Shown here in pieces: positions 19,632-50,648 of a stretch of 64,000 nucleotides of DNA; within the stretch, counting starts at the first letter, position 1, and every line of letters begins with the position of its first letter. The DNA comes from an uncultured Melioribacter sp. GTDB taxonomy: Bacteria; Bacteroidota; Ignavibacteria; Kapaibacteriales; Kapaibacteriaceae. The stretch covers positions 13,773 through 77,772 of the forward strand of contig CAYMTW010000003.1 of NCBI GenBank assembly GCA_964393485.1, written 5' to 3'. Position numbers and translations under genes: made by a program. The notes below the pieces were generated by a model. It was not told where the DNA came from. It did no database searches and saw only the letters and a program-made list of their open reading frames with translations.

Positions 19632-19748
19632 TTTGAGGTGTGAGGTTTTGGGTTTGGGGTGTGAGGTGTCATTCCTGCAAATGCAGGAAGCGTGTTGCAA
19701 CTGACTACATCATCCGTATCCCGTATCCCGCACCCCATACCCCTCTTG
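19631..19748 (+). repeat. Repeat locus A: GT-rich heptamers + GTCATTCC hairpin unit + C-rich CCGTATC-type heptamers
   Basis: 19631..19665 reads GTTTGAG GTGTGAG GTTTTGG GTTTGGG GTGTGAG. It is followed by GTGTCATTCCTGCAAATGCAGGAAGCG (hairpin TTCCTGCA/TGCAGGAA, 19672..19689). 19714..19748 reads CCGTATC CCGTATC CCGCACC CCATACC CCTCTTG. Confidence 0.9.
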
Positions 19749-32664: not shown

Positions 32665-33399
32665 ATGCGAAGAGACATTACTTCGTGGCATAGCCCACGC
32701 CTCGACAAGACCATGGAGATCTGCACCTATGGTCATTTTGGCACGCCCATCCTGATGTTCCCGAGTGCCGCTGCCGACTATCTCGAGTATGAGCGGTTTC
32801 ATTTGATCGATAGCGTTAAAGAGCCCCTTGAGCAGGGCCGGATCAAGATCTTCTCGATCAACAGCATCAACAGCGAGGCCTGGCTCAACGATCTAATGGA
32901 AGGACGTCAGAAAGCCATCCGCCATCAGCAGTACAATGCCTACATCGTTGATGAGGTGGTGCCGTTCATTCACAACGATTGCGGCGGAGCACTACCGATC
33001 CTTACCTCCGGCGTTTCCCTTGGTGCCCTGCATGCCGTCAACACCATGTTCCGACGTCCGGATTTGTTCAGCGGCACCCTTGCTATGAGTGGCATCTACG
33101 ACCTCAAGGCCTACACGCAGGGCTACTTCGACGAGGACTGCTACTTCAACTCGCCAATGGATTATCTGCCCAATCTCAAGGAAGGGGCTATCCTGGATCT
33201 GCTTCGCACTGATAAACACATACACATCGCAACCGGCAGCGGCGCCTACGAAGATCCATCGGCCAGTGTCCTCTTTGGTGAGGTCCTCAGTGCCCTTTCA
33301 ATCCCCCACACCATCGATGTGTGGTCAAATGAGTGGACCCATGACTGGCCCACCTGGCGGGCAATGTTGCCGGCAATGGTAGCCAGGTGTGAGGTGTGA
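32665..33399 (+). CDS. Esterase-family (esterase D / putative esterase) hydrolase
   Basis: TYGHFGTPILMFPSAAADY and nucleophile elbow GVSLGALHAVN. The last codons and the stop lie in repeat locus B. Confidence 0.6.
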   Translation: MRRDITSWHSPRLDKTMEICTYGHFGTPILMFPSAAADYLEYERFHLIDSVKEPLEQGRIKIFSINSINSEAWLNDLMEGRQKAIRHQQYNAYIVDEVVPFIHNDCGGALPILTSGVSLGALHAVNTMFRRPDLFSGTLAMSGIYDLKAYTQGYFDEDCYFNSPMDYLPNLKEGAILDLLRTDKHIHIATGSGAYEDPSASVLFGEVLSALSIPHTIDVWSNEWTHDWPTWRAMLPAMVARCEV

Positions 33400-33525
33400 G
33401 GTTTGGGGTTTGGGGTGTGGGGTGTGAGGTTCCGTACCTCCGCAACTCTCTACCCCCGTAACTCCGTAATTCCGTAATTCCGTAATTCCGTAATTCCGTA
33501 CCTCCGTAATTCCGTAATTCCGTCC
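33387..33525 (+). repeat. Composite repeat locus B: six GT-rich heptamers + twelve TCCGTAAY-type octamers
   Basis: 33387..33428 reads GTGTGAG GTGTGAG GTTTGGG GTTTGGG GTGTGGG GTGTGAG. After a GT junction (33429..33430), octamers run from 33431: TCCGTACC TCCGCAAC TCTCTACC CCCGTAAC TCCGTAAT x4 TCCGTACC TCCGTAAT x2 TCCGTCC. The array fills the whole gap between two convergent genes. Confidence 0.95.
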
Positions 33526-36109: not shown

Positions 36110-36183
36110 GTTTTAGGTGTGAGGTGTGGGGTGTGGGGTTCCCTCCGTAACTGAGTAACTCAGTAATTCCGTAACTCAGCAAT
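36110..36183 (+). repeat. Composite repeat locus C: four GT-rich heptamers + five TNNGTAAY octamers
   Basis: GTTTTAG GTGTGAG GTGTGGG GTGTGGG, then junction GTTCCC, then TCCGTAAC TGAGTAAC TCAGTAAT TCCGTAAC TCAGCAAT. Same order and GGGGTTCC junction as locus B. Confidence 0.9.
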
Positions 36184-41043: not shown

Positions 41044-41101
41044 AATTCCCGCTTTCGTGGGAATGACCTTCACCTCAAACCTCACACCCCAAACCTCACA
41101 C
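41044..41101 (-). repeat. Repeat locus D: GT-rich heptamers + GTCATTCC hairpin unit (read on the minus strand)
   Basis: The minus strand reads GTGTGAG GTTTGGG GTGTGAG GTTTGAG GTGAAG GTCATTCCCACGAAAGCGGGAATT. The hairpin is TTCCCGC/tttc/GTGGGAA at 41046..41063. Same module order as locus A. Confidence 0.9.
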
Positions 41102-41113
41102 CTGCGCGCGGCG

Positions 41114-43653: not shown

Positions 43654-46653
43654 TTACCTTACGAGACAAGTGATGACGGTGCGTATGCGCGACGATGTTT
43701 CGTCGTATAGTGACACGAGGTAGCACCCAGACGAGAGGCTGCCGAAGCGGTGATAACCGTTCACTGAACCAGCAGAGGCCACAAGCTGTCCGCGCAGATC
43801 GAACACATCCACACGTCCGCGGGCATCTGTCACCACGATTGCATCTTCGCTGACACTGATGCGCACCTGGTCAGCCCCTTGCTCCTCATCAACACCGACC
43901 ACGACGATGTTTGCATTGAGCTGAACCTCGTATGGCACCGCGCAGGAATCGACTTGATAGCGAAGCGTGCCCTTGATAAGACCACCTGTCGTGATATCCT
44001 TGGGGTCAAGCGTGACCGTGACGTTTGTGGCCTTGGCATTTGGTATCACGAGCCCCTGCTTCATTGATGTCGTGAACGGCTCAGTGATCTCCACCAGCTG
44101 AACAGTGGCAGAGGGGGCGCCAGTCATCGTAGCCGTGATCGGAAGCTGGCGAATGATCGGCTTGGAACTAGTCCGGACTGTGTCAAATGTGAGAACCGAT
44201 GGTTGCGTGATCTTTGCCAGTGAGTTGCGCAGAATGATCGGCACGGCAAACGAACCTTCGCAGCCATCGCTCTCATAGGTCATCGTAAGCGTGTCCGTAA
44301 ACGTACCCGTCGAGAGCGTCGTCGTCAGGTACATCAGCGCTGAACGCTCGCCACCCGGAGGGACGACAAACGGCGGGCGTTCAAGAGCGATCGTGTTCTT
44401 GGTTGTTTTCGAATAGACGTCGGAAAACGTCATCGGAAAGGACGTTGGATTGGAGAAGCCGACCACGACCATGCGTGGAGTGACCGAGTCGCAGAGGATC
44501 TTTGTTCCAAGGTCTAGCGGCAGGGTTGTAAAGATCTTAGGCACTGTACGAAGTCCGCTGATCGTACCTCGAAAACGCCAGCGGCATGTCTTGTCGAGAA
44601 ACACGATGTCTTCCCGGACCATGCCTGTTCCGCGCACCGTCACGGTAATTGGCACTTTGACAGACGTGCCCGGAGCGATCCGGATCGGAAGCGGAGCCAT
44701 GACTTTGATGGCCGCACCAGTTGTGATCGAATCAATGTCCAGAGTATCAGCACCGATGTTCGTCAGCGTGTACTCCTGCAGAAAGGTGTTCTTGCATGGT
44801 GGCATCTGAGGAATTGCGAGCGTGGACGGTGCCATCGTCATTTGCAGATCATAGGTTTTGATCTCTAGATATGCCGTGTCAGAGCAGGCGTTGCTGTCAG
44901 AAACGATCACTGAGAACCGTGTCGGCTCGTCAATTCGTTGCGAATACAGTTCGGTGATGTTTGAGATCAAGACACCATTGCGAAGCCATTGGTATCTGTA
45001 CGGAGGTGTGCCCCCTGTGACTTCGCACGTTACGTCGGCGCTCTTACCCGAGCAGACCTTGGTTGCAGCTGTAACAAGATTTGCTTCGGGGGCTTCAAAC
45101 ACTTTCATGACGCAGGTGTCGGTAGCCGAATTACCGACAGCATCGCGCACATTCACAAAGAAGGTGAAGTTTCTCGGCTGTTTGATCATGAAACTGTTTG
45201 TCGTGGTGGTTGTATCGAAGTACGAGCTGTACCACCTGTAGGTATAGGGCTCTGCACCTGCAGTAGCGGTAGCTGTTACACTCCTCACACCGTTGCGACA
45301 CGCCCAGATGGTGTCTGGAATCGTAACCTTCAGCTCATAGGTAAGGGGCGTGCACCAATCGTTGACAAGCTTGGTCTTCATGTAATCGGACACTCTCTTG
45401 TTGAAGACCAGGTTTGTGCCCTGCGCCGTGAGGTGACAGTACGACATGATCGTACCCTTGACGGCTTTGGTTCCCGTATAACACGTGCCCCCTTCGGCCG
45501 CTACACAGGAGTCGATCGGCGGATTCCAGCCGCAGTTGAATGTGTGCGGGGATCCAACGTTGTGGCCTGTTTCGTGCGAAAAGACATCCGTATCCCAGAC
45601 GTATCCGGCAGCCGGGTACGTGATATTGTTGTTGAGTCCGCTAACGGCATAGCCATACTGCTTGTTGCACATGGTTTCCAGATACGCGACACCACCAATA
45701 CCATTGATGCCAGACAGTAAATGTGCCAGTGTCCGGTCCACATTAGGAAACGTATTCACCCAACGGGTTGCAAACTGCCCAAGCAACGTTGACGTGTTGG
45801 TTCCGGGATAGGGATCGACCGTAGTCCAGATGGTGATCTGTCCGATGAGCAATGTGGCTGTTATGTCACGCTCATAGATGGCGCTTGAAGCAGCAACCAC
45901 TGACTCCACATACTTGGTAGCCTTATTCAGGTCACGTCCATGGTCGATGTAGTAGTCGTTATCACCTTCAATGGCGATCTTGATCTGACGGTAGCGTACC
46001 TGCTCGTTTTCGCCCTTCTTCGTTGGGCGCACTGCGATCGGCCCCATCTCTGGATCCTTCGTATGACATGACCATTCGTTGCGCGCAGGCACGTGGGATT
46101 GGTCGTAGATCACCATCGTCGAGGGCGCACCATCAATCGACAGGGGGCTCAGCAGGAAGGTACGCTCACCATCGGCAGAACCGGTGGTGATCATGCCCGT
46201 GGCCCAATCCGAATAGATCGCCGCAACAACGAACGAACCCTTCATCGACGGAATGAAACCACGAACCAGAACGCTCTGGGGAGTCGGGATCTTTACGGGT
46301 CCGGTTGCGGTCATCGCCATCAGCTGCGTTGATTCGTCGATCACCCGATAGCGGGCAACAATGGCCTCGACATTGCCAATGCCGGGCAGGTTCAGCGTCA
46401 GCGTAAACGGAATGTTATCCGCCAGCTCACGTGCCTGAACGAACGTGTTCTGATCGATGGTACAAAACGAAGCCGGATGCGAGGCCGTAAACGTCTCTGG
46501 ACGAGACGTAGGGATTAGCACACCGCGCAGTTCTGTGCGGGCCGGACGGCTGGCTAGGGTCGAAAAAATGTCCTGGGCATACATGCAGACTGTTGCCGCC
46601 CAGACGATCAAACCAAGGAGTACGAGACGCATCATGGCGGTCCCAAAAAACAA
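43654..46653 (-). CDS. 999-aa secreted zinc metalloprotease (metzincin, reprolysin/M12B-like) with Ig-like modules and T9SS CTD
   Basis: Signal peptide. HETGHNVGSPH (HExxHxxGxxH, nt 45544..45576). Ig-like repeats (YTYRWYSS, YRYQWLRNG). CTD-like end GCYLVSLYDETSSRIRTVITCLVR. Confidence 0.75.
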   Translation of the reverse strand: MFFGTAMMRLVLLGLIVWAATVCMYAQDIFSTLASRPARTELRGVLIPTSRPETFTASHPASFCTIDQNTFVQARELADNIPFTLTLNLPGIGNVEAIVARYRVIDESTQLMAMTATGPVKIPTPQSVLVRGFIPSMKGSFVVAAIYSDWATGMITTGSADGERTFLLSPLSIDGAPSTMVIYDQSHVPARNEWSCHTKDPEMGPIAVRPTKKGENEQVRYRQIKIAIEGDNDYYIDHGRDLNKATKYVESVVAASSAIYERDITATLLIGQITIWTTVDPYPGTNTSTLLGQFATRWVNTFPNVDRTLAHLLSGINGIGGVAYLETMCNKQYGYAVSGLNNNITYPAAGYVWDTDVFSHETGHNVGSPHTFNCGWNPPIDSCVAAEGGTCYTGTKAVKGTIMSYCHLTAQGTNLVFNKRVSDYMKTKLVNDWCTPLTYELKVTIPDTIWACRNGVRSVTATATAGAEPYTYRWYSSYFDTTTTTNSFMIKQPRNFTFFVNVRDAVGNSATDTCVMKVFEAPEANLVTAATKVCSGKSADVTCEVTGGTPPYRYQWLRNGVLISNITELYSQRIDEPTRFSVIVSDSNACSDTAYLEIKTYDLQMTMAPSTLAIPQMPPCKNTFLQEYTLTNIGADTLDIDSITTGAAIKVMAPLPIRIAPGTSVKVPITVTVRGTGMVREDIVFLDKTCRWRFRGTISGLRTVPKIFTTLPLDLGTKILCDSVTPRMVVVGFSNPTSFPMTFSDVYSKTTKNTIALERPPFVVPPGGERSALMYLTTTLSTGTFTDTLTMTYESDGCEGSFAVPIILRNSLAKITQPSVLTFDTVRTSSKPIIRQLPITATMTGAPSATVQLVEITEPFTTSMKQGLVIPNAKATNVTVTLDPKDITTGGLIKGTLRYQVDSCAVPYEVQLNANIVVVGVDEEQGADQVRISVSEDAIVVTDARGRVDVFDLRGQLVASAGSVNGYHRFGSLSSGCYLVSLYDETSSRIRTVITCLVR

Positions 46654-46771
46654 TGATCAATGGCAGGTATGTGGAAAATACGCACCTGATGAGCTCCTCA
46701 ACGGAACTTGCCGTAGTTTGGTTCTCGTTTTGTTTCGCGCGATTGCGTCACACCCCATTACCGAAGCTCCC

Positions 46772-47722
46772 ATGGTCGCCCGTTTGCTCTTTTTTCTTGC
46801 CCTAGCAACCGTCACGGCCTCGGCCACCGACGTCACTCTGGTCCTGCAATCCATGCATGGAACGGAGCCATTTCGGCTTCAGACGGTCTATCCGGGCGTT
46901 CGGGCCGGATCATTCTACCGTCCTGAAATGCTTCGCTACTACATTTCCAAGATCACCATTCATCATGACGGGACAAAGTCGACCCCACTGCTCGACACCT
47001 ACCTACTGGTTGATGTGAAGGAAATGCAACGGTATTCTCTTGGAGACCTCGATGTCGGAACGGTGGACTCGATCACGTTTTACATCGGTGTTGACAAGGG
47101 CCGCAACCATCTGGACCCCACGACATATCCAGACTGGCACCCGCTTGCCCTCAAAACCCCATCAATGCATTGGGGTTGGACGGCTGGATATCGGTTTGTG
47201 ACCTACGAGGGCATGGCGGGAACCTCGGAGTCAAAGCTTACGGCTGGTTTTCAGATTCATACCCTTGACGATGCCCTCTACACCCGCGTCTCATGCCCGG
47301 TTTCGTCCAGCCGTTCGGTTGCAGGAGTCGAGATCCCAGTAAGGGCAGACTACAAGCGCCTACTGGACGCGATCGATGTGTCTAAGGGGCTCATCATGCA
47401 CGGCAGTACCGATGAAGCCATCACCCTAATGCGCAACATGGGCACGACGGTGTATACCCCCGGAACCACGACCTCGGTCGATGACTGCACGTCACACCGG
47501 GAGCTTGTGCATCCCAATCCCGCACGAGATATCGTGCAGCTTCCATCAAACGTGGTCGAAGCCCAAGTAATCGATGTTGCTGGCTCCAGCGTTCTCTCTG
47601 CGAGGGTGTCCGAGGGCTCTACGATGCTGTCTGTCAGCACGCTTGCCGTCGGCACGTACAGTGTTCTGCTCCGAAGCTCCGCCGGAGCTATCCGGTACCA
47701 AACGCTTGTCATTATCCGATAA
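46772..47722 (+). CDS. MbnP-like copper-binding protein carrying a T9SS CTD
   Basis: Start moved from 46457 to ATG 46772 (MVARLLFFLALATVTASA signal). MLRYYISKITIHHDG, ITFYIGVDKGRNHLDP and HPLALKTPSMHWGWTAGYRFVTYEG fit the MbnP pattern. C-terminal HPNPARDIVQL..VGTYSVLLRSSAGAIRYQTLVIIR is a CTD. Confidence 0.65.
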   Translation: MVARLLFFLALATVTASATDVTLVLQSMHGTEPFRLQTVYPGVRAGSFYRPEMLRYYISKITIHHDGTKSTPLLDTYLLVDVKEMQRYSLGDLDVGTVDSITFYIGVDKGRNHLDPTTYPDWHPLALKTPSMHWGWTAGYRFVTYEGMAGTSESKLTAGFQIHTLDDALYTRVSCPVSSSRSVAGVEIPVRADYKRLLDAIDVSKGLIMHGSTDEAITLMRNMGTTVYTPGTTTSVDDCTSHRELVHPNPARDIVQLPSNVVEAQVIDVAGSSVLSARVSEGSTMLSVSTLAVGTYSVLLRSSAGAIRYQTLVIIR

Positions 47723-48707
47723 ATACCGCCCGTGGCTTGCAGCCCTGGCCGTCCTTGTTCTTACGGCCTGTTCGGTTGAACCGCAGTCGAACATTGACCA
47801 GTACGATCTTGTCGATGTTCCGGCGGGATTTCCCGCACAGAACTTCCCTGCCGACAACGCACCAACTCCCGATCGTGTTGCCCTCGGAAAGCGCCTGTTC
47901 TTCGACTCCCGCATGTCGAATGGCAACGACGTCTCCTGTGCTACGTGTCACGACCCCGCCAAGGCCTTTACGGACGGCTTGCCAGCCTCGCTCGGCACCT
48001 TCGGGCGCACCGGCGTGCGCAATGCCCCTTCGCTTGCCAACGTGGGGTATCTGCCCTACCTGATGCGCGAAGGGGGCGTCCCTACGCTTGAGATGCAGAT
48101 CCTGGTGCCGATCCAGGAACACGCCGAGTTCGATCTTGAGGCCCCCGCCCTGGTGGCACGCCTGACGCTCGACTCATCACTTCAACAGATGAGCCGGACG
48201 GCTTACGGCCGGGCGCTGGACATCTGGGTGATCACCCGGGCGATCGCTTCGTTCGAACGGACACTTGTCAGCGGCCGTTCACGCGTCGATGAAGACCGTC
48301 TGTCGGATGCTGAACGTCGGGGTAGACAGGTTTTCCTGCGTTCGGGCTGCGTTACGTGTCACGGCGGGCCGTTCTACACGGACCACCGTTTTGCCTGCAA
48401 CGGACTTCTCGAATCTTATTCCGATAAGGGGCGGGCACGGCTCACCAACAAGGCATCCGACGAAGCCGTGTTCCGGGTTCCTTCACTTCGCAATGTTGGC
48501 CGCACAGCCCCCTACCTGCATAACGGTTCGATCGCTACCTTGCGCGAGGTGATCGATCGATACAGCCGCGGTGGATATCAGCATCCCAACAAAGACACCT
48601 CCATTGTCCCTCTGGGCCTGTCGGCTTTGGAGTGTTCAGATCTGGAGGCATTTTTGCTGGCCCTTACCGACGATCGATTCACCACCAATCCTCGGTTCCG
48701 ACCATGA
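47706..48707 (+). CDS. Di-haem cytochrome c peroxidase family (MbnH/MauG-like) lipoprotein, copy 1
   Basis: CATCHDP and CVTCHGG haem sites. FRVPSLRNVGRTAPYLHNGS. Lipobox-like AALAVLVLTAC. The ORF is open from 47574; TTG 47706 is the plausible start (17-nt overlap with the upstream gene). Confidence 0.8.
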   Translation: MSLSDKYRPWLAALAVLVLTACSVEPQSNIDQYDLVDVPAGFPAQNFPADNAPTPDRVALGKRLFFDSRMSNGNDVSCATCHDPAKAFTDGLPASLGTFGRTGVRNAPSLANVGYLPYLMREGGVPTLEMQILVPIQEHAEFDLEAPALVARLTLDSSLQQMSRTAYGRALDIWVITRAIASFERTLVSGRSRVDEDRLSDAERRGRQVFLRSGCVTCHGGPFYTDHRFACNGLLESYSDKGRARLTNKASDEAVFRVPSLRNVGRTAPYLHNGSIATLREVIDRYSRGGYQHPNKDTSIVPLGLSALECSDLEAFLLALTDDRFTTNPRFRP

Positions 48708-49774
48708 ACGTCCTCCGATCTGCCCTCATCATCGCCATCGTCTGCCTGGGAATTGGTTGTACCGATCCCGAGGTGCCGGTGTCGTTTGACGAGACCCCCT
48801 ACCCTCTTCGTTTCGAGGATCTGCCGGAGCCTATCCTGCCCATAGATTATCCGCTGACTCTTCAGCGTGTGAATCTTGGGCGTGCGCTGTTTCATGATGG
48901 TATGCTCTCGCGCACTGGCACACAAAGCTGCGCTACCTGCCACTCACAGGCAGCAGCATTCTCAGATAACCGCACCTATAGTATCGGTGTCCGAGGTCTG
49001 TCCGGCACACGTCAGGCCATGGCACTGATCAACCTCGCTTGGAGTGAACGAGGCTTTTTCTGGGACGGACGCTCTCCGACGCTTCGCGATCAGGCACTGC
49101 ATCCGATCGTAGATACTCTGGAAATGGACGATACGATGGAGAACGTGCTGAAGAAGCTTTCGGCATCAGCCCTCTACCGTAACATGTTCATCAAAGCCTT
49201 CGGATCCGACACTGTCACACCTGAGCGCATTGGTGTTGCTCTCGAACAGTTCATGCTCATTCTCGTTTCCGGTAAGAGTCGATACGACCGCGCCGTAGCG
49301 GGGTATGTCGCTCTATCCGAATCCGAGGAACGCGGACGTCAACTCTTCTCTCGGGAGTTCGACCCTACCTACAAGAAGAAAGGGGCGGAGTGCTTCCACT
49401 GTCATGCCGCTCCGTTCTTTACGAACGACCGCTTCATGAACAATGGCCTGGATGACGACGCTTCGTCCCGTGACATTGGCAGGGGGGGCTTTACGGGTCT
49501 CGCCTCGGACCGCGCCAAATTCCGCGTACCTACGCTGCGCAACATCGCCCGCACAGCCCCCTACATGCATGACGGACGCTTTAAGACACTAGAGGAAGTC
49601 GTTGAGTTTTACAACACCGGCGTACGCCGCTCCTCTACCGTGGACCCACTGATGCAATTCAACCTCGCTCCAGGCCTAAAACTCAACGACCAGGAAAAGG
49701 CCGACCTCGTGGCCTTCCTGCGCACCCTCACCGACGAACAGTTTCTGACGAATCCGGTGTATAGAATGCCGTGA
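48704..49774 (+). CDS. Di-haem cytochrome c peroxidase family (MbnH/MauG-like) lipoprotein, copy 2
   Basis: CATCHSQ and CFHCHAA. FRVPTLRNIARTAPYMHDGR. Lipobox IVCLGIGC. ATG 48704 overlaps the upstream TGA (ATGA). Confidence 0.85.
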   Translation: MNVLRSALIIAIVCLGIGCTDPEVPVSFDETPYPLRFEDLPEPILPIDYPLTLQRVNLGRALFHDGMLSRTGTQSCATCHSQAAAFSDNRTYSIGVRGLSGTRQAMALINLAWSERGFFWDGRSPTLRDQALHPIVDTLEMDDTMENVLKKLSASALYRNMFIKAFGSDTVTPERIGVALEQFMLILVSGKSRYDRAVAGYVALSESEERGRQLFSREFDPTYKKKGAECFHCHAAPFFTNDRFMNNGLDDDASSRDIGRGGFTGLASDRAKFRVPTLRNIARTAPYMHDGRFKTLEEVVEFYNTGVRRSSTVDPLMQFNLAPGLKLNDQEKADLVAFLRTLTDEQFLTNPVYRMP

Positions 49775-49778
49775 GAGA

Positions 49779-49955
49779 ATTACGGAATGACGGAAATACT
49801 GAGTTACTGAGTTACTGAATTACGGAGGTACGGAGGTACGGAGGTACGGAGGTACGGAGGTACGGAGGTTCGGAGGTTCGGAGGTACCCCGTCATCCCTG
49901 CGAAAGCAGGGATCAATCTTTGATTGCCTGGGTCCCTGCTTTCGCAGGGATGACG
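49779..49955 (+). repeat. Repeat locus E: 14 octamers (reverse orientation of loci B/C) + 66-bp perfect palindrome made of two GTCATCCC hairpin units
   Basis: 49779..49890 reads ATTACGGA ATGACGGA AATACTGA GTTACTGA x2 ATTACGGA GGTACGGA x5 GGTTCGGA x2 GGTACCCC. 49890..49912 (CGTCATCCCTGCGAAAGCAGGGA) is the exact reverse complement of 49933..49955. The 20-nt spacer holds a third small hairpin (CAATC ttt GATTG). Confidence 0.95.
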
Positions 49956-49967
49956 CTCGGTCTCTCG

Positions 49968-50648
49968 TCACTTGTCTTTCGCCACATACCTAAACGGCAA
50001 CAATACCAGCCCGAACAGCAGGGCACCTACGAGTTCAAATGTGACGTAGAACCAGATTCCGTCTGAGGGGAAGACGGCGAGTACCGTTTGGTCACGAAAT
50101 GGATCCATTGGGTCAAGGAAGCCGTAGTTGGCATTCGTGAGCCAGTTTACGGCCATTGCACTGATGAAATAGATCTGCGAGACGGCCATTACACGCAGCC
50201 ATGCTCCGGGCCGCGGTCGAATCTTCAGACCAAAGACGACCATGCTGGCGGCTGCGATGAGGCCTGTATGGCCGATCACGAAATAGATGAATGGTACTTC
50301 CGGAAATGGATTGTCGAGTTGTGGTGTGATCAGAGCGTTCACGCTTCCAGTCATCACCCAGCACCATGAGATCTCTGCAAAGAGCGGGTTCCGTGTTAGA
50401 AGTGCTAGTGCTGTTACGACATTGGCCCATGCACAGAGGTGCATGGGCAGATCGGTGGCCACTGACCAATAGCCTGCTACCAGGCGATAGGATTGATAGA
50501 CGACGATATTGATCAGAAGAATCACTGCCATGGCAATGCGAACGCGATCGGACGTTTCCGGACGGCGCTGCAACAACACAGGGAGGGCAACGCAGAGAAT
50601 GACGGTTGCGATCACCGTCACCCAGTGCTCAAGTGAAAACATTACCAT
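49968..50648 (-). CDS. Integral membrane protein, TIGR02206/YwaF (TMEM164-like) type
   Basis: Seven hydrophobic helices. HWVTVIATVILCV and YQSYRL..DLPMHLCAWANV resemble that family. Confidence 0.45.
   Translation of the reverse strand: MVMFSLEHWVTVIATVILCVALPVLLQRRPETSDRVRIAMAVILLINIVVYQSYRLVAGYWSVATDLPMHLCAWANVVTALALLTRNPLFAEISWCWVMTGSVNALITPQLDNPFPEVPFIYFVIGHTGLIAAASMVVFGLKIRPRPGAWLRVMAVSQIYFISAMAVNWLTNANYGFLDPMDPFRDQTVLAVFPSDGIWFYVTFELVGALLFGLVLLPFRYVAKDK

Follow-up and report, generated by a model that had tools for sequence, protein, structure and literature searches.

What kind of DNA fills the 180-bp spacer between the second of two di-haem CCP_MauG (MbnH-like) genes and a convergent gene for a TMEM164-family membrane protein, and does it serve the genes beside it? 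The spacer lies in a window of 64,000 nucleotides (the whole stretch of DNA that was analysed, to which positions refer unless a contig is named) from an uncultured Melioribacter sp., whose genome, here called G000, comprises 2.27 Mb in 122 contigs, with 56% G+C and an estimated completeness of 100%. A preliminary description of the sequence had drawn attention to a run of octamers and a long palindrome at this site. The spacer is, in all likelihood, composed of two adjoining dispersed repeats that both turn over fast: a pair of CGTC-1 units with their tags pointing outward, and an array of 8-nt repeats that is specific to the genus. This reading is carried by the family membership of the components, their copy numbers, their fixed order, the gene associations found in relatives and the turnover of the spacer, all of which are established below. 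We infer that this locus serves no purpose particular to the MbnP/MbnH genes, and that any effect it may have is generic.

Direct parsing resolves the array into 14 octamers of the GARKTACK type on the plus strand (49777-49888), beginning 2 nt past the stop codon of the CCP_MauG gene, with the G-rich strand as the sense strand of that gene. Their order is GAATTACG, GAATGACG, GAAATACT, GAGTTACT twice, GAATTACG, GAGGTACG five times, GAGGTTCG twice and GAGGTACC. In the register of the preliminary description, which starts at 49779, the 14 octamers include GGTACGGA five times and GGTTCGGA twice, as had been claimed. The last eight octamers (GAGGTACG x5, GAGGTTCG x2 and GAGGTACC) all contain GGAGGT; the consecutive motifs are thus present as described, in eight copies rather than seven, one per 8 nt from 49824 to 49880. 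Tandem Repeats Finder (TRF) gives a score of 120 to a period-8 array of 8.4 copies with 96% matches (49821-49887), and it also reports a looser one from 49777 on.

The array is followed by two 23-nt arms (49890-49912 and 49933-49955), for which the number of chance matches expected within the window is zero. They are 100% complementary and stand 20 nt apart. Of the supposed 66-bp perfect palindrome, the exact complementarity of the arms holds; the stretch as a whole falls short of a perfect palindrome, with self-complementarity at 50 of its 66 positions, since its 20-nt spacer is asymmetric. As had been recognized, each arm is a hairpin of its own (8-bp stem, GAAA loop, -14.5 kcal/mol), and the alternative folds are three stem-loops or one long hairpin. 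The single long hairpin reaches -50.1 kcal/mol on the plus strand and -47.4 kcal/mol on the minus strand, and the folding z-scores of the 204-nt region are -4.85 and -6.12. The left unit (49890-49916, plus strand) has a CGTC tag, an 8-bp stem ATCCCTGC/GCAGGGAT, a GAAA loop and a CAA tail where the consensus is CCA. The right unit (49929-49955, minus strand) is inverted, so that the CGTC tag of each unit lies on the outer side; it ends in a CCA tail, and its stem closes with A.C in place of an A-T pair. The spacer between the arms (49913-49932) overlaps the 3' tail of the left unit and contains the hairpin CAATC-ttt-GATTG. The second arm ends 12 nt short of the stop codon of the TMEM164-family gene. 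A scan of 49300-50400 against Rfam returned sub-threshold chance matches only; the best of them, to a miRNA model, scored 24.5 bits where the gathering score is 96.

Neither component is peculiar to this site. The preliminary description would have counted as refuted had the genome contained no further copies of the 23-nt unit; about 100 were found, and the locus is therefore an instance of two repeat families and not a device of the MbnH-like operon. With up to three mismatches, the 23-nt arm occurs 75 times in G000, and about 20 units are identical to the 23-mer, while a broader unit pattern with up to two mismatches yields 103 units in 64 loci. The consensus of these 103 units is CGTC-ATYCCYGC-GAAA-GCRGGRAT-CCA. 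CGTC serves as the tag of 58 units, both focal ones among them, and TGTC of 33; 74 have a GAAA loop and 77 a CCA tail at the 3' end. Two stem pairs covary almost perfectly, one being C-G in 51 units, T-A in 48 and something else in 4, the other T-A in 62 and C-G in 31. At junctions of opposite orientation the tags always face outward (19 of 19 are '+-', none '-+'), and the 20-nt spacing of the focal dimer is the modal one, shared by 12 of the 19 inverted dimers. Units of the same orientation recur every 28-31 nt, leaving 2-5 nt between 26-nt units. This disposes of a CRISPR array, which would show unique spacers of about 26 nt or more, and the focal pair is moreover inverted. Units are enriched in convergent spacers (34% against a background of 18%).

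These properties identify the family. CGTC-1 is a repetitive extragenic palindromic (REP) family defined by a tag (CGTC or TGTC), a stem of 8 bp whose first two pairs are A-T and T-A, a 4-nt loop and a CCA tail; it has one predominant inverted dimer (termed HH), the opposite kind being rare, and no dedicated transposase (PMC3733652). The same paper equates it with the dRS3 element of Neisseria and records it from Chlorobi and Bacteroidetes. In every sequence feature of this definition the focal arm agrees, and on this basis it is a member of CGTC-1 (that is, of Neisseria dRS3/NTS, the Ssn-related motif). In the genus, the unit is present in 15 of 25 genomes, with 3 to 200 copies each, and it also occurs in one other family of the order. 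Far beyond it, the exact 26-mer GTCATYCCYGCGAAAGCRGGRATCCA is found at at least 120 loci in many phyla when one genome per species is considered. The matches listed include Proteobacteria, Chloroflexota, Patescibacteria (the candidate phyla radiation, CPR), Omnitrophota, Nitrospirota, Planctomycetota, Acidobacteriota and Rickettsia, and also Dehalococcoidia, Zixibacteria, Bipolaricaulota, Vampirovibrionales and one metagenome-assembled genome of Nanoarchaeota. By our own estimate, from the degeneracy of the pattern and a collection of 596 Gb, far less than one match would be expected by chance. The phyla concerned far outnumber the five listed by Di Nocera in 2013. In the genomes with these matches, too, the units are mostly tags-outward dimers. 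Such near-identity of a 26-mer over these distances suggests either horizontal spread or a very constrained protein partner.

The array belongs to a class that is equally dispersed. Periods 7 and 8 are in large excess among the TRF arrays of G000: at three copies or more there are 132 and 62 of them, and 201 arrays after merging, with a total of 9 kb. They are built from dozens of unit families, for example AGGTTTT, ACGGAATT, ACGGAGTT, ACGGGGT, GAGGTTT, GGTCATT and CGTCATT. The octamer family of the focal locus, searched as (ACGGARKT)3, gives 141 matches in G000. Of the 25 genus genomes, 18 contain it; the 16 genomes examined from other genera of the order do not, and the family is, as far as these sequences extend, confined to the genus. 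Arrays favour convergent spacers (43%, compared with 18% of all spacers). Among the 164 arrays that lie outside open reading frames (ORFs), 111 are nearest a 3' end, with a median start 3 nt past the stop codon, and in 80 of these 111 the G-rich strand is the sense strand. Within the window, further arrays occur at 36115-36179, 41072-41103 and 19634-19669, and the unit types there include CTCAGTAA, ACCTCAA and TGAGGTG.

The two classes keep a fixed order. A 7- or 8-nt array is found within 40 nt at 37 of the 64 unit loci, compared with 1.2% of random positions. Where all units of a locus share one orientation, so that either flank is open to it, the array adjoins the CGTC end in 24 cases and the opposite end in 4 (p = 1.8e-4), and its G-rich strand is the strand of the unit in 25 of 28 such loci. 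Arrays are ordered among themselves as well: when successive arrays are no more than 700 nt apart, the G-rich one precedes the C-rich one 34 times and the reverse occurs once (p = 2e-9). These 34 pairs enclose CGTC units in 13 cases, a PF05635 gene in 2 and a short spacer in 19. The paired arms often belong to unrelated unit families, and complementarity of the arms is therefore not required. In the window, for instance, an AGGTGTG array of 6.6 copies (33385-33430) is followed by a CCGTAATT array of 8.5 copies (33456-33523); this pair (33385-33523, or C3:47157-47295 on the contig) has its G-rich arm first and its C-rich arm second, and the two are not complementary. The focal locus is the left half only of such an arrangement and consists of the G-rich octamer arm and a unit dimer; there is no right arm because the stop codon of the TMEM164-family gene follows at once. 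Other genomes of the genus agree in a small sample, since regions of G023, G020 and G024 have the array 5' of the unit at 5 of 6 informative junctions. An array lies nearby in only 5 of 158 units taken from other phyla and from congeners, and this genus contributes 3 of the 5. The coupling is therefore lineage-specific, and the idea that it is a general property of CGTC units was rejected.

The turnover of the spacer can be followed directly, as the orthologous CCP-TMEM164 spacer is readable in ten genus genomes. All fillings differ, and in 8 of the 10 the filling starts 2-6 nt past the stop codon. G000 has the octamers and the CGTC dimer; G013 and G014 have GAAGTACG/GAATTACA or GAGTTACG octamers with a different hairpin (GGGGTCGCAGCATGCTGCGACCC); and G015 has GAATTACT octamers followed by about 25 GTCATTG/C heptamers. 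In G041, heptamers are followed by two degenerate CGTC units and C-rich heptamers, while in G023 there are GACTGAT heptamers, a GC hairpin, one inverted unit and mirrored heptamers. GC-rich repeats of 15-27 nt fill the spacer of G001, G020 and G003, and that of G010 consists of 138 repeat-free nucleotides. Neither the GGAGGT motif nor the CGTC dimer is therefore conserved for this gene pair.

The gene neighbourhood can be described briefly. The upstream CCP_MauG gene occupies 48632-49774 on the plus strand (stop TGA at 49772-49774) and the TMEM164-family gene 49968-50648 on the minus strand (stop TGA at 49968-49970), so that the element does lie between two convergent genes, as first described. 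When called from the first start codon, the two CCP_MauG ORFs (47574-48707 and 48632-49774) overlap by 76 nt, and translation of the second probably begins at a site further downstream. Both are preceded by an MbnP-like gene (46457-47722) that carries a C-terminal domain of the type IX secretion system (T9SS). In sum, the observation in the preliminary description is confirmed and its interpretation is partly supported.

A clue to the arrays comes from genes of the PF05635 family ("23S rRNA IVP", the TIGR02436 four-helix bundle), which are present in 19 of the 25 genus genomes. The presence of octamer arrays and of PF05635 agrees in 24 of the 25: all 18 genomes with arrays have the gene, and all 6 that are free of the gene are free of the arrays. 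The exception, G017, has PF05635 and no octamer arrays, but does have heptamer arrays. This match has a Fisher p of 4e-5, which is not corrected for phylogeny, and protein and arrays are linked by correlation only. In G000, 3 of 4 confident PF05635 genes have a 7-8-nt array on the left and an inverted one on the right. One (C40:9049-9444, in the cassette C40:9000-9532) stands between (GGGTACG)6 and (CGTACCC)8, and another (C51:8435-8818, cassette C51:8299-8843) between (AGTGACC)10 and (GTCACTC)3. The third (C3:~78900-79290, cassette C3:78730-79323) has GACGGAGG/TACGAAGT octamers on its left and AACTCCGT on its right. This last cassette belongs to the focal octamer family and is on the same contig, about 1 kb past the end of the window (C3:77772); its left side also holds a CCCCGAGCC..GGCCCGGGG hairpin. 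Its gene may be truncated, as the match to the PF05635 hidden Markov model (HMM) covers model positions 31-105 only. In congeners, 7 of 7 sampled PF05635 loci have a G-rich array on the left and a C-rich one on the right.

The fourth gene in G000, in the region C39:5100-5800, lies between inverted GGGAAGC-type repeats. A third class of repeats, with GC-rich units of 15-27 nt that contain GGAGGGAC or GGGAAGC, is seen both in these flanks and in the focal spacer of G001, G020 and G003. Since the C39 gene is flanked by this GC-rich class, PF05635 cassettes are not limited to 7-8-nt arms. The focal locus itself does not qualify as a PF05635 cassette: it has a single arm and no IVP gene, and the array there is for this reason at most a gene-less derivative.

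For the hairpin units, the clue is the Ssn nuclease. In 2025, the Neisseria element was redefined as the oriented NTS motif CGTCATTCCCGCGMAVGCGGGAATCYRG, more generally the Ssn-related motif (SRM) (PMC11893778). SsnA is a single-domain GIY-YIG nuclease of 94 aa that binds NTS only as single-stranded DNA (ssDNA) and nicks it upstream, at a distance of a few nucleotides from the motif; through this activity, transformation of N. meningitidis by NTS-containing DNA is reduced, and ssn genes typically have the motif on both flanks (PMC11893778). Binding and cutting are established for the Neisseria and Wolbachia enzymes only (PMC11893778). Small GIY-YIG ORFs occur in 13 of the 25 genus genomes. The 99-aa GIY-YIG protein of G023 has matches of at least 62% identity in G003, G006 and G018 of the same genus and in G039 of the same order. 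A GIY-YIG gene of 99-105 aa with '+' units on one side and '-' units on the other is found in G006, G018, G023 and G039; this layout held at every readable locus of the G023 subtype, and in G023 itself up to 6 and 9 units flank the gene. The small genes of congeners score 56-66 bits against the Pfam GIY-YIG model, and their assignment to the class cd10448 is putative. A second small GIY-YIG subtype, 30-45% identical to the G023 protein, exists in genus genomes that are free of units (G005, G008, G019 and G024). The two loci of this subtype that were read (G005 and G008) both lack flanking CGTC units, and the subtype may pair with another hairpin motif.

From these associations, a mode of action for each half of the locus can be proposed. 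As ssDNA, each CGTC unit would fold into a hairpin with an 8-bp stem and a GAAA loop, as in other bacteria. By analogy with those systems, a GIY-YIG Ssn of about 95 aa would bind the unit and nick a few nucleotides 5' of the CGTC tag, an activity that limits ssDNA recombination in Neisseria. A cut at the focal locus would fall in the 1-nt linker or in the last octamer. With such an enzyme present, the units would mark ssDNA cut sites; the predicted substrate of a congener Ssn, such as the 99-aa protein of G023, is ssDNA with CGTCATCCCTGCGAAAGCAGGGATCCA. A full array element would comprise a G-rich arm, a small gene for a PF05635 four-helix bundle and a C-rich arm, and its gene-less copies, single or paired, would occupy the space after stop codons. 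The hairpin, at -50 kcal/mol, would probably act on both convergent transcripts, either as a barrier to 3' exonucleases or as a pause site for RNA polymerase.

Several points weigh against the reading of the spacer as two coupled repeats with these activities. The co-occurrence of units and octamers is weak, as 13 of the 25 genus genomes have both, 2 have units only, 5 have octamers only and 5 have neither (Fisher p = 0.075). Arrays without units are found in G005, G008, G009, G016 and G024, and units without octamer arrays in G017 and G018. Since there are genomes with only one class, array and unit are separable. Part of the adjacency may come from a common tolerance of spacers behind stop codons, which would leave the 24:4 polarity unexplained. 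The gene calls on which the spacer classes depend are crude (longest ORFs, 92% coding). Finally, no ssn homologue was found in G000 by tblastn with five kinds of small GIY-YIG protein, by an HMM search or by a protein search; the two GIY-YIG HMM matches in this genome are both of UvrC size. The nuclease part therefore cannot run from the assembled genome, and the units are either orphans or are served by a gene lost in an assembly gap.

The second of these options leads to an alternative in which an active Ssn system makes use of the units, its ssn gene being absent from the draft because it lies inside unit clusters. The cut sites in ssDNA that the focal pair marks would then put a restraint on recombination, transformation or ssDNA mobile elements near the flanking genes. 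We regard this as possible and yet rather unlikely. In congeners, ssn does lie inside dense unit clusters, which short reads would assemble poorly. Two tandem CGTC clusters of G000 with a 30-nt period, one at C13:45926-46163 (within C13:45894-46237) and one at C7:28837-29014, are broken by runs of N, that is, scaffold gaps; to the left of the former lies a G-rich octamer arm and to its right a C-rich heptamer arm, and both clusters are candidate sites of an unassembled ssn gene. Arrays or units are found at 34 of the 244 contig ends, although these repeats make up 0.5% of the bases, and they account for part of the fragmentation of the assembly. The twenty or so units that are identical to the 23-mer and the maintained covariation of the stem also fit with a system in use. 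Against it stand the tblastn result, the estimated completeness of 100% and the fact that 6 of the 15 unit-positive genus genomes have no small GIY-YIG gene at all.

About equally tentative is a second alternative, in which the inverted pair has been co-opted as a bidirectional terminator, a stabilizer of 3' ends or both for the two convergent mRNAs, as proposed for enterobacterial REPs, with the array as a passive passenger in the 3' untranslated region (UTR). The great stability of the hairpin on both strands and the low z-scores of the region argue for it, as do the enrichment of arrays and units in convergent spacers and the presence of some strong hairpin in most orthologous spacers, such as GGGGTCGCAGCATGCTGCGACCC in G013 and G014. 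However, neither strand has a U-tract 3' of the stem, and a scan of 49775-49967 detected no terminator-like site. Moreover, the spacer of G015 contains arrays only and that of G010 is repeat-free, while enrichment behind stop codons is equally expected of any tolerated junk.

The fixed order on each strand also raises the question of whether PF05635 arrays and Ssn-associated CGTC hairpins interact physically on ssDNA, for which the odds appear poor. In one variant of this composite reading, the array would supply the variable upstream flank that Ssn nicks; in another, CGTC hairpins would insert into array cassettes or replace their cargo. If true, array and CGTC unit would together form an undescribed composite element of mobility or recombination that remodels the spacers behind stop codons. 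Since the predicted Ssn cut side is the array side, the arrays were tested for a gradient of homogeneity, as would be left by growth seeded by an Ssn nick near the unit. Seeding of this kind found no support: homogeneity is 0.83 in the proximal and 0.85 in the distal part (Wilcoxon p = 0.70), at low power with n = 13.

A further suggestion of the preliminary description, that the GGAGGT run in the 3' UTR might act as a Shine-Dalgarno (SD) or anti-SD sponge, a decoy for ribosomes or for the 16S tail, has little left to recommend it beyond the eight motifs, set 8 nt apart on the strand that is sense for the upstream gene, and it is very improbable. The motif is not conserved at the locus, where congeners carry GAAGTACG, GAGTTACG or GAATTACT octamers, heptamers, repeats of 15-27 nt or nothing, and the GGAGG-containing ACGGAGGT is the consensus of only 7 arrays of three or more copies, set against roughly 201 merged arrays. 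SD-like motifs are themselves rare at gene starts (GGAG precedes 12% of the crudely called starts, against 6% in the background), the 3' end of the 16S rRNA is absent from the assembly, which makes the anti-SD sequence unreadable, and the window has no strand excess, with 37 GGAGG and 37 CCTCC.

Equally hard to credit is a REPIN or miniature inverted-repeat element (MITE) mobilized by a RAYT (REP-associated tyrosine transposase, of the IS200/IS605 Y1 family), since, for all the REPIN-like architecture of the inverted doublet and one weak Y1_Tnp-like gene in G000 (C35:15274-15864, 30.8 bits), that gene lacks flanking units, the tag is CGTC and not GTAG, Y1_Tnp genes occur in almost all congeners, including those free of units, and Di Nocera et al. 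met with no tyrosine transposase that had CGTC repeats at its flanks (PMC3733652). The C35 ORF is an observation in its own right: it has 196 codons and a weak Y1_Tnp match, with HLH in the position of the HUH motif and no flanking REP-like repeats. Similar weak matches exist in most congeners, and the ORF may be a domesticated relative of the tyrosine transposases.

The reading as two adjoining dispersed repeats thus has consequences on more than one level. For MbnP/MbnH, the outcome is negative but useful, as the sequence after the operon is generic repeat DNA and is therefore not to be read as regulation of the pathway. The CGTC/NTS hairpins and the Ssn nucleases were characterized only in 2025, and the polarity rule, with the array on the predicted Ssn cut side, is a testable lead on the origin of the element. 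The strict polarity of array and CGTC unit may be new, as may be the finding that units occupy the position of PF05635 in full cassettes. The genus provides a compact natural test bed, with at least 25 genomes of 2-3.5 Mb and two repeat systems whose presence differs by species.

It remains to compare these elements with known systems. Among elements that encode S23p/PF05635/TIGR02436 proteins, an example is Coxiella burnetii's intervening sequence (IVS), which is a 23S rRNA element (PMC4990558); the cassettes seen here lie between protein genes and not in 23S rRNA. With the NTS consensus CGTCATTCCCGCGMAVGCGGGAATCYRG, the focal left unit agrees at 22 of 28 positions by eye, and two stem pairs with compensating changes make up 4 of the 6 differences; the palindrome is directly followed by the C on which binding critically depends. 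Other units of G000 (ATTCCCGCGAAAGCGGGAAT variants) fit the consensus better than the focal left unit. The NTS-ssn-NTS gene layout of PMC11893778 is also seen in congeners. Since the Neisseria SsnA is sequence-specific and its NTS stem differs from that of G000, the units of G000 would need a cognate enzyme.

The CGTC-1 REPs (PMC3733652), which correspond to dRS3 of Neisseria and RPE-6 of Rickettsia, share the tag, stem, loop and CCA tail with the units of G000, as well as high copy number and an intergenic location, mostly 3' of genes. A single inverted dimer predominates in both, if the HH of that paper is assumed to be the tags-outward form. The G-rich 7-8-nt array that regularly precedes the units of G000 is an association absent from PMC3733652. 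A further difference is that the stem of G000 exists in four covarying variants (ATYCCYGC).

Among further intergenic arrays of short repeats are the cyanobacterial short tandemly repeated repetitive (STRR) sequences and Mrazek's long simple sequence repeats (LSSRs). A parallel is formed by the heptamer arrays of Xanthomonas (GGGAATC) and Nostoc (GGGGAYT), whose G-rich strand is the sense strand and which lie no more than a few tens of bases past the stop codon (PMC4692102); TAACTGA arrays are known from Beggiatoaceae, Cyanobacteria and Bacteroidetes (PMC4679880). The former resemble the arrays of G000 in their 7-8-nt units, variable copy number, many intergenic loci and G-rich sense strand behind the stop codon. 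The unit families elsewhere are others than those found here, which include GARKTACK, AGGTKTG, GGGGTAC and GGTCATT, and G-quadruplex potential is no general feature of the array units of G000. What sets the arrays of G000 apart from heptamer arrays elsewhere is their coupling to CGTC units, with a fixed polarity.

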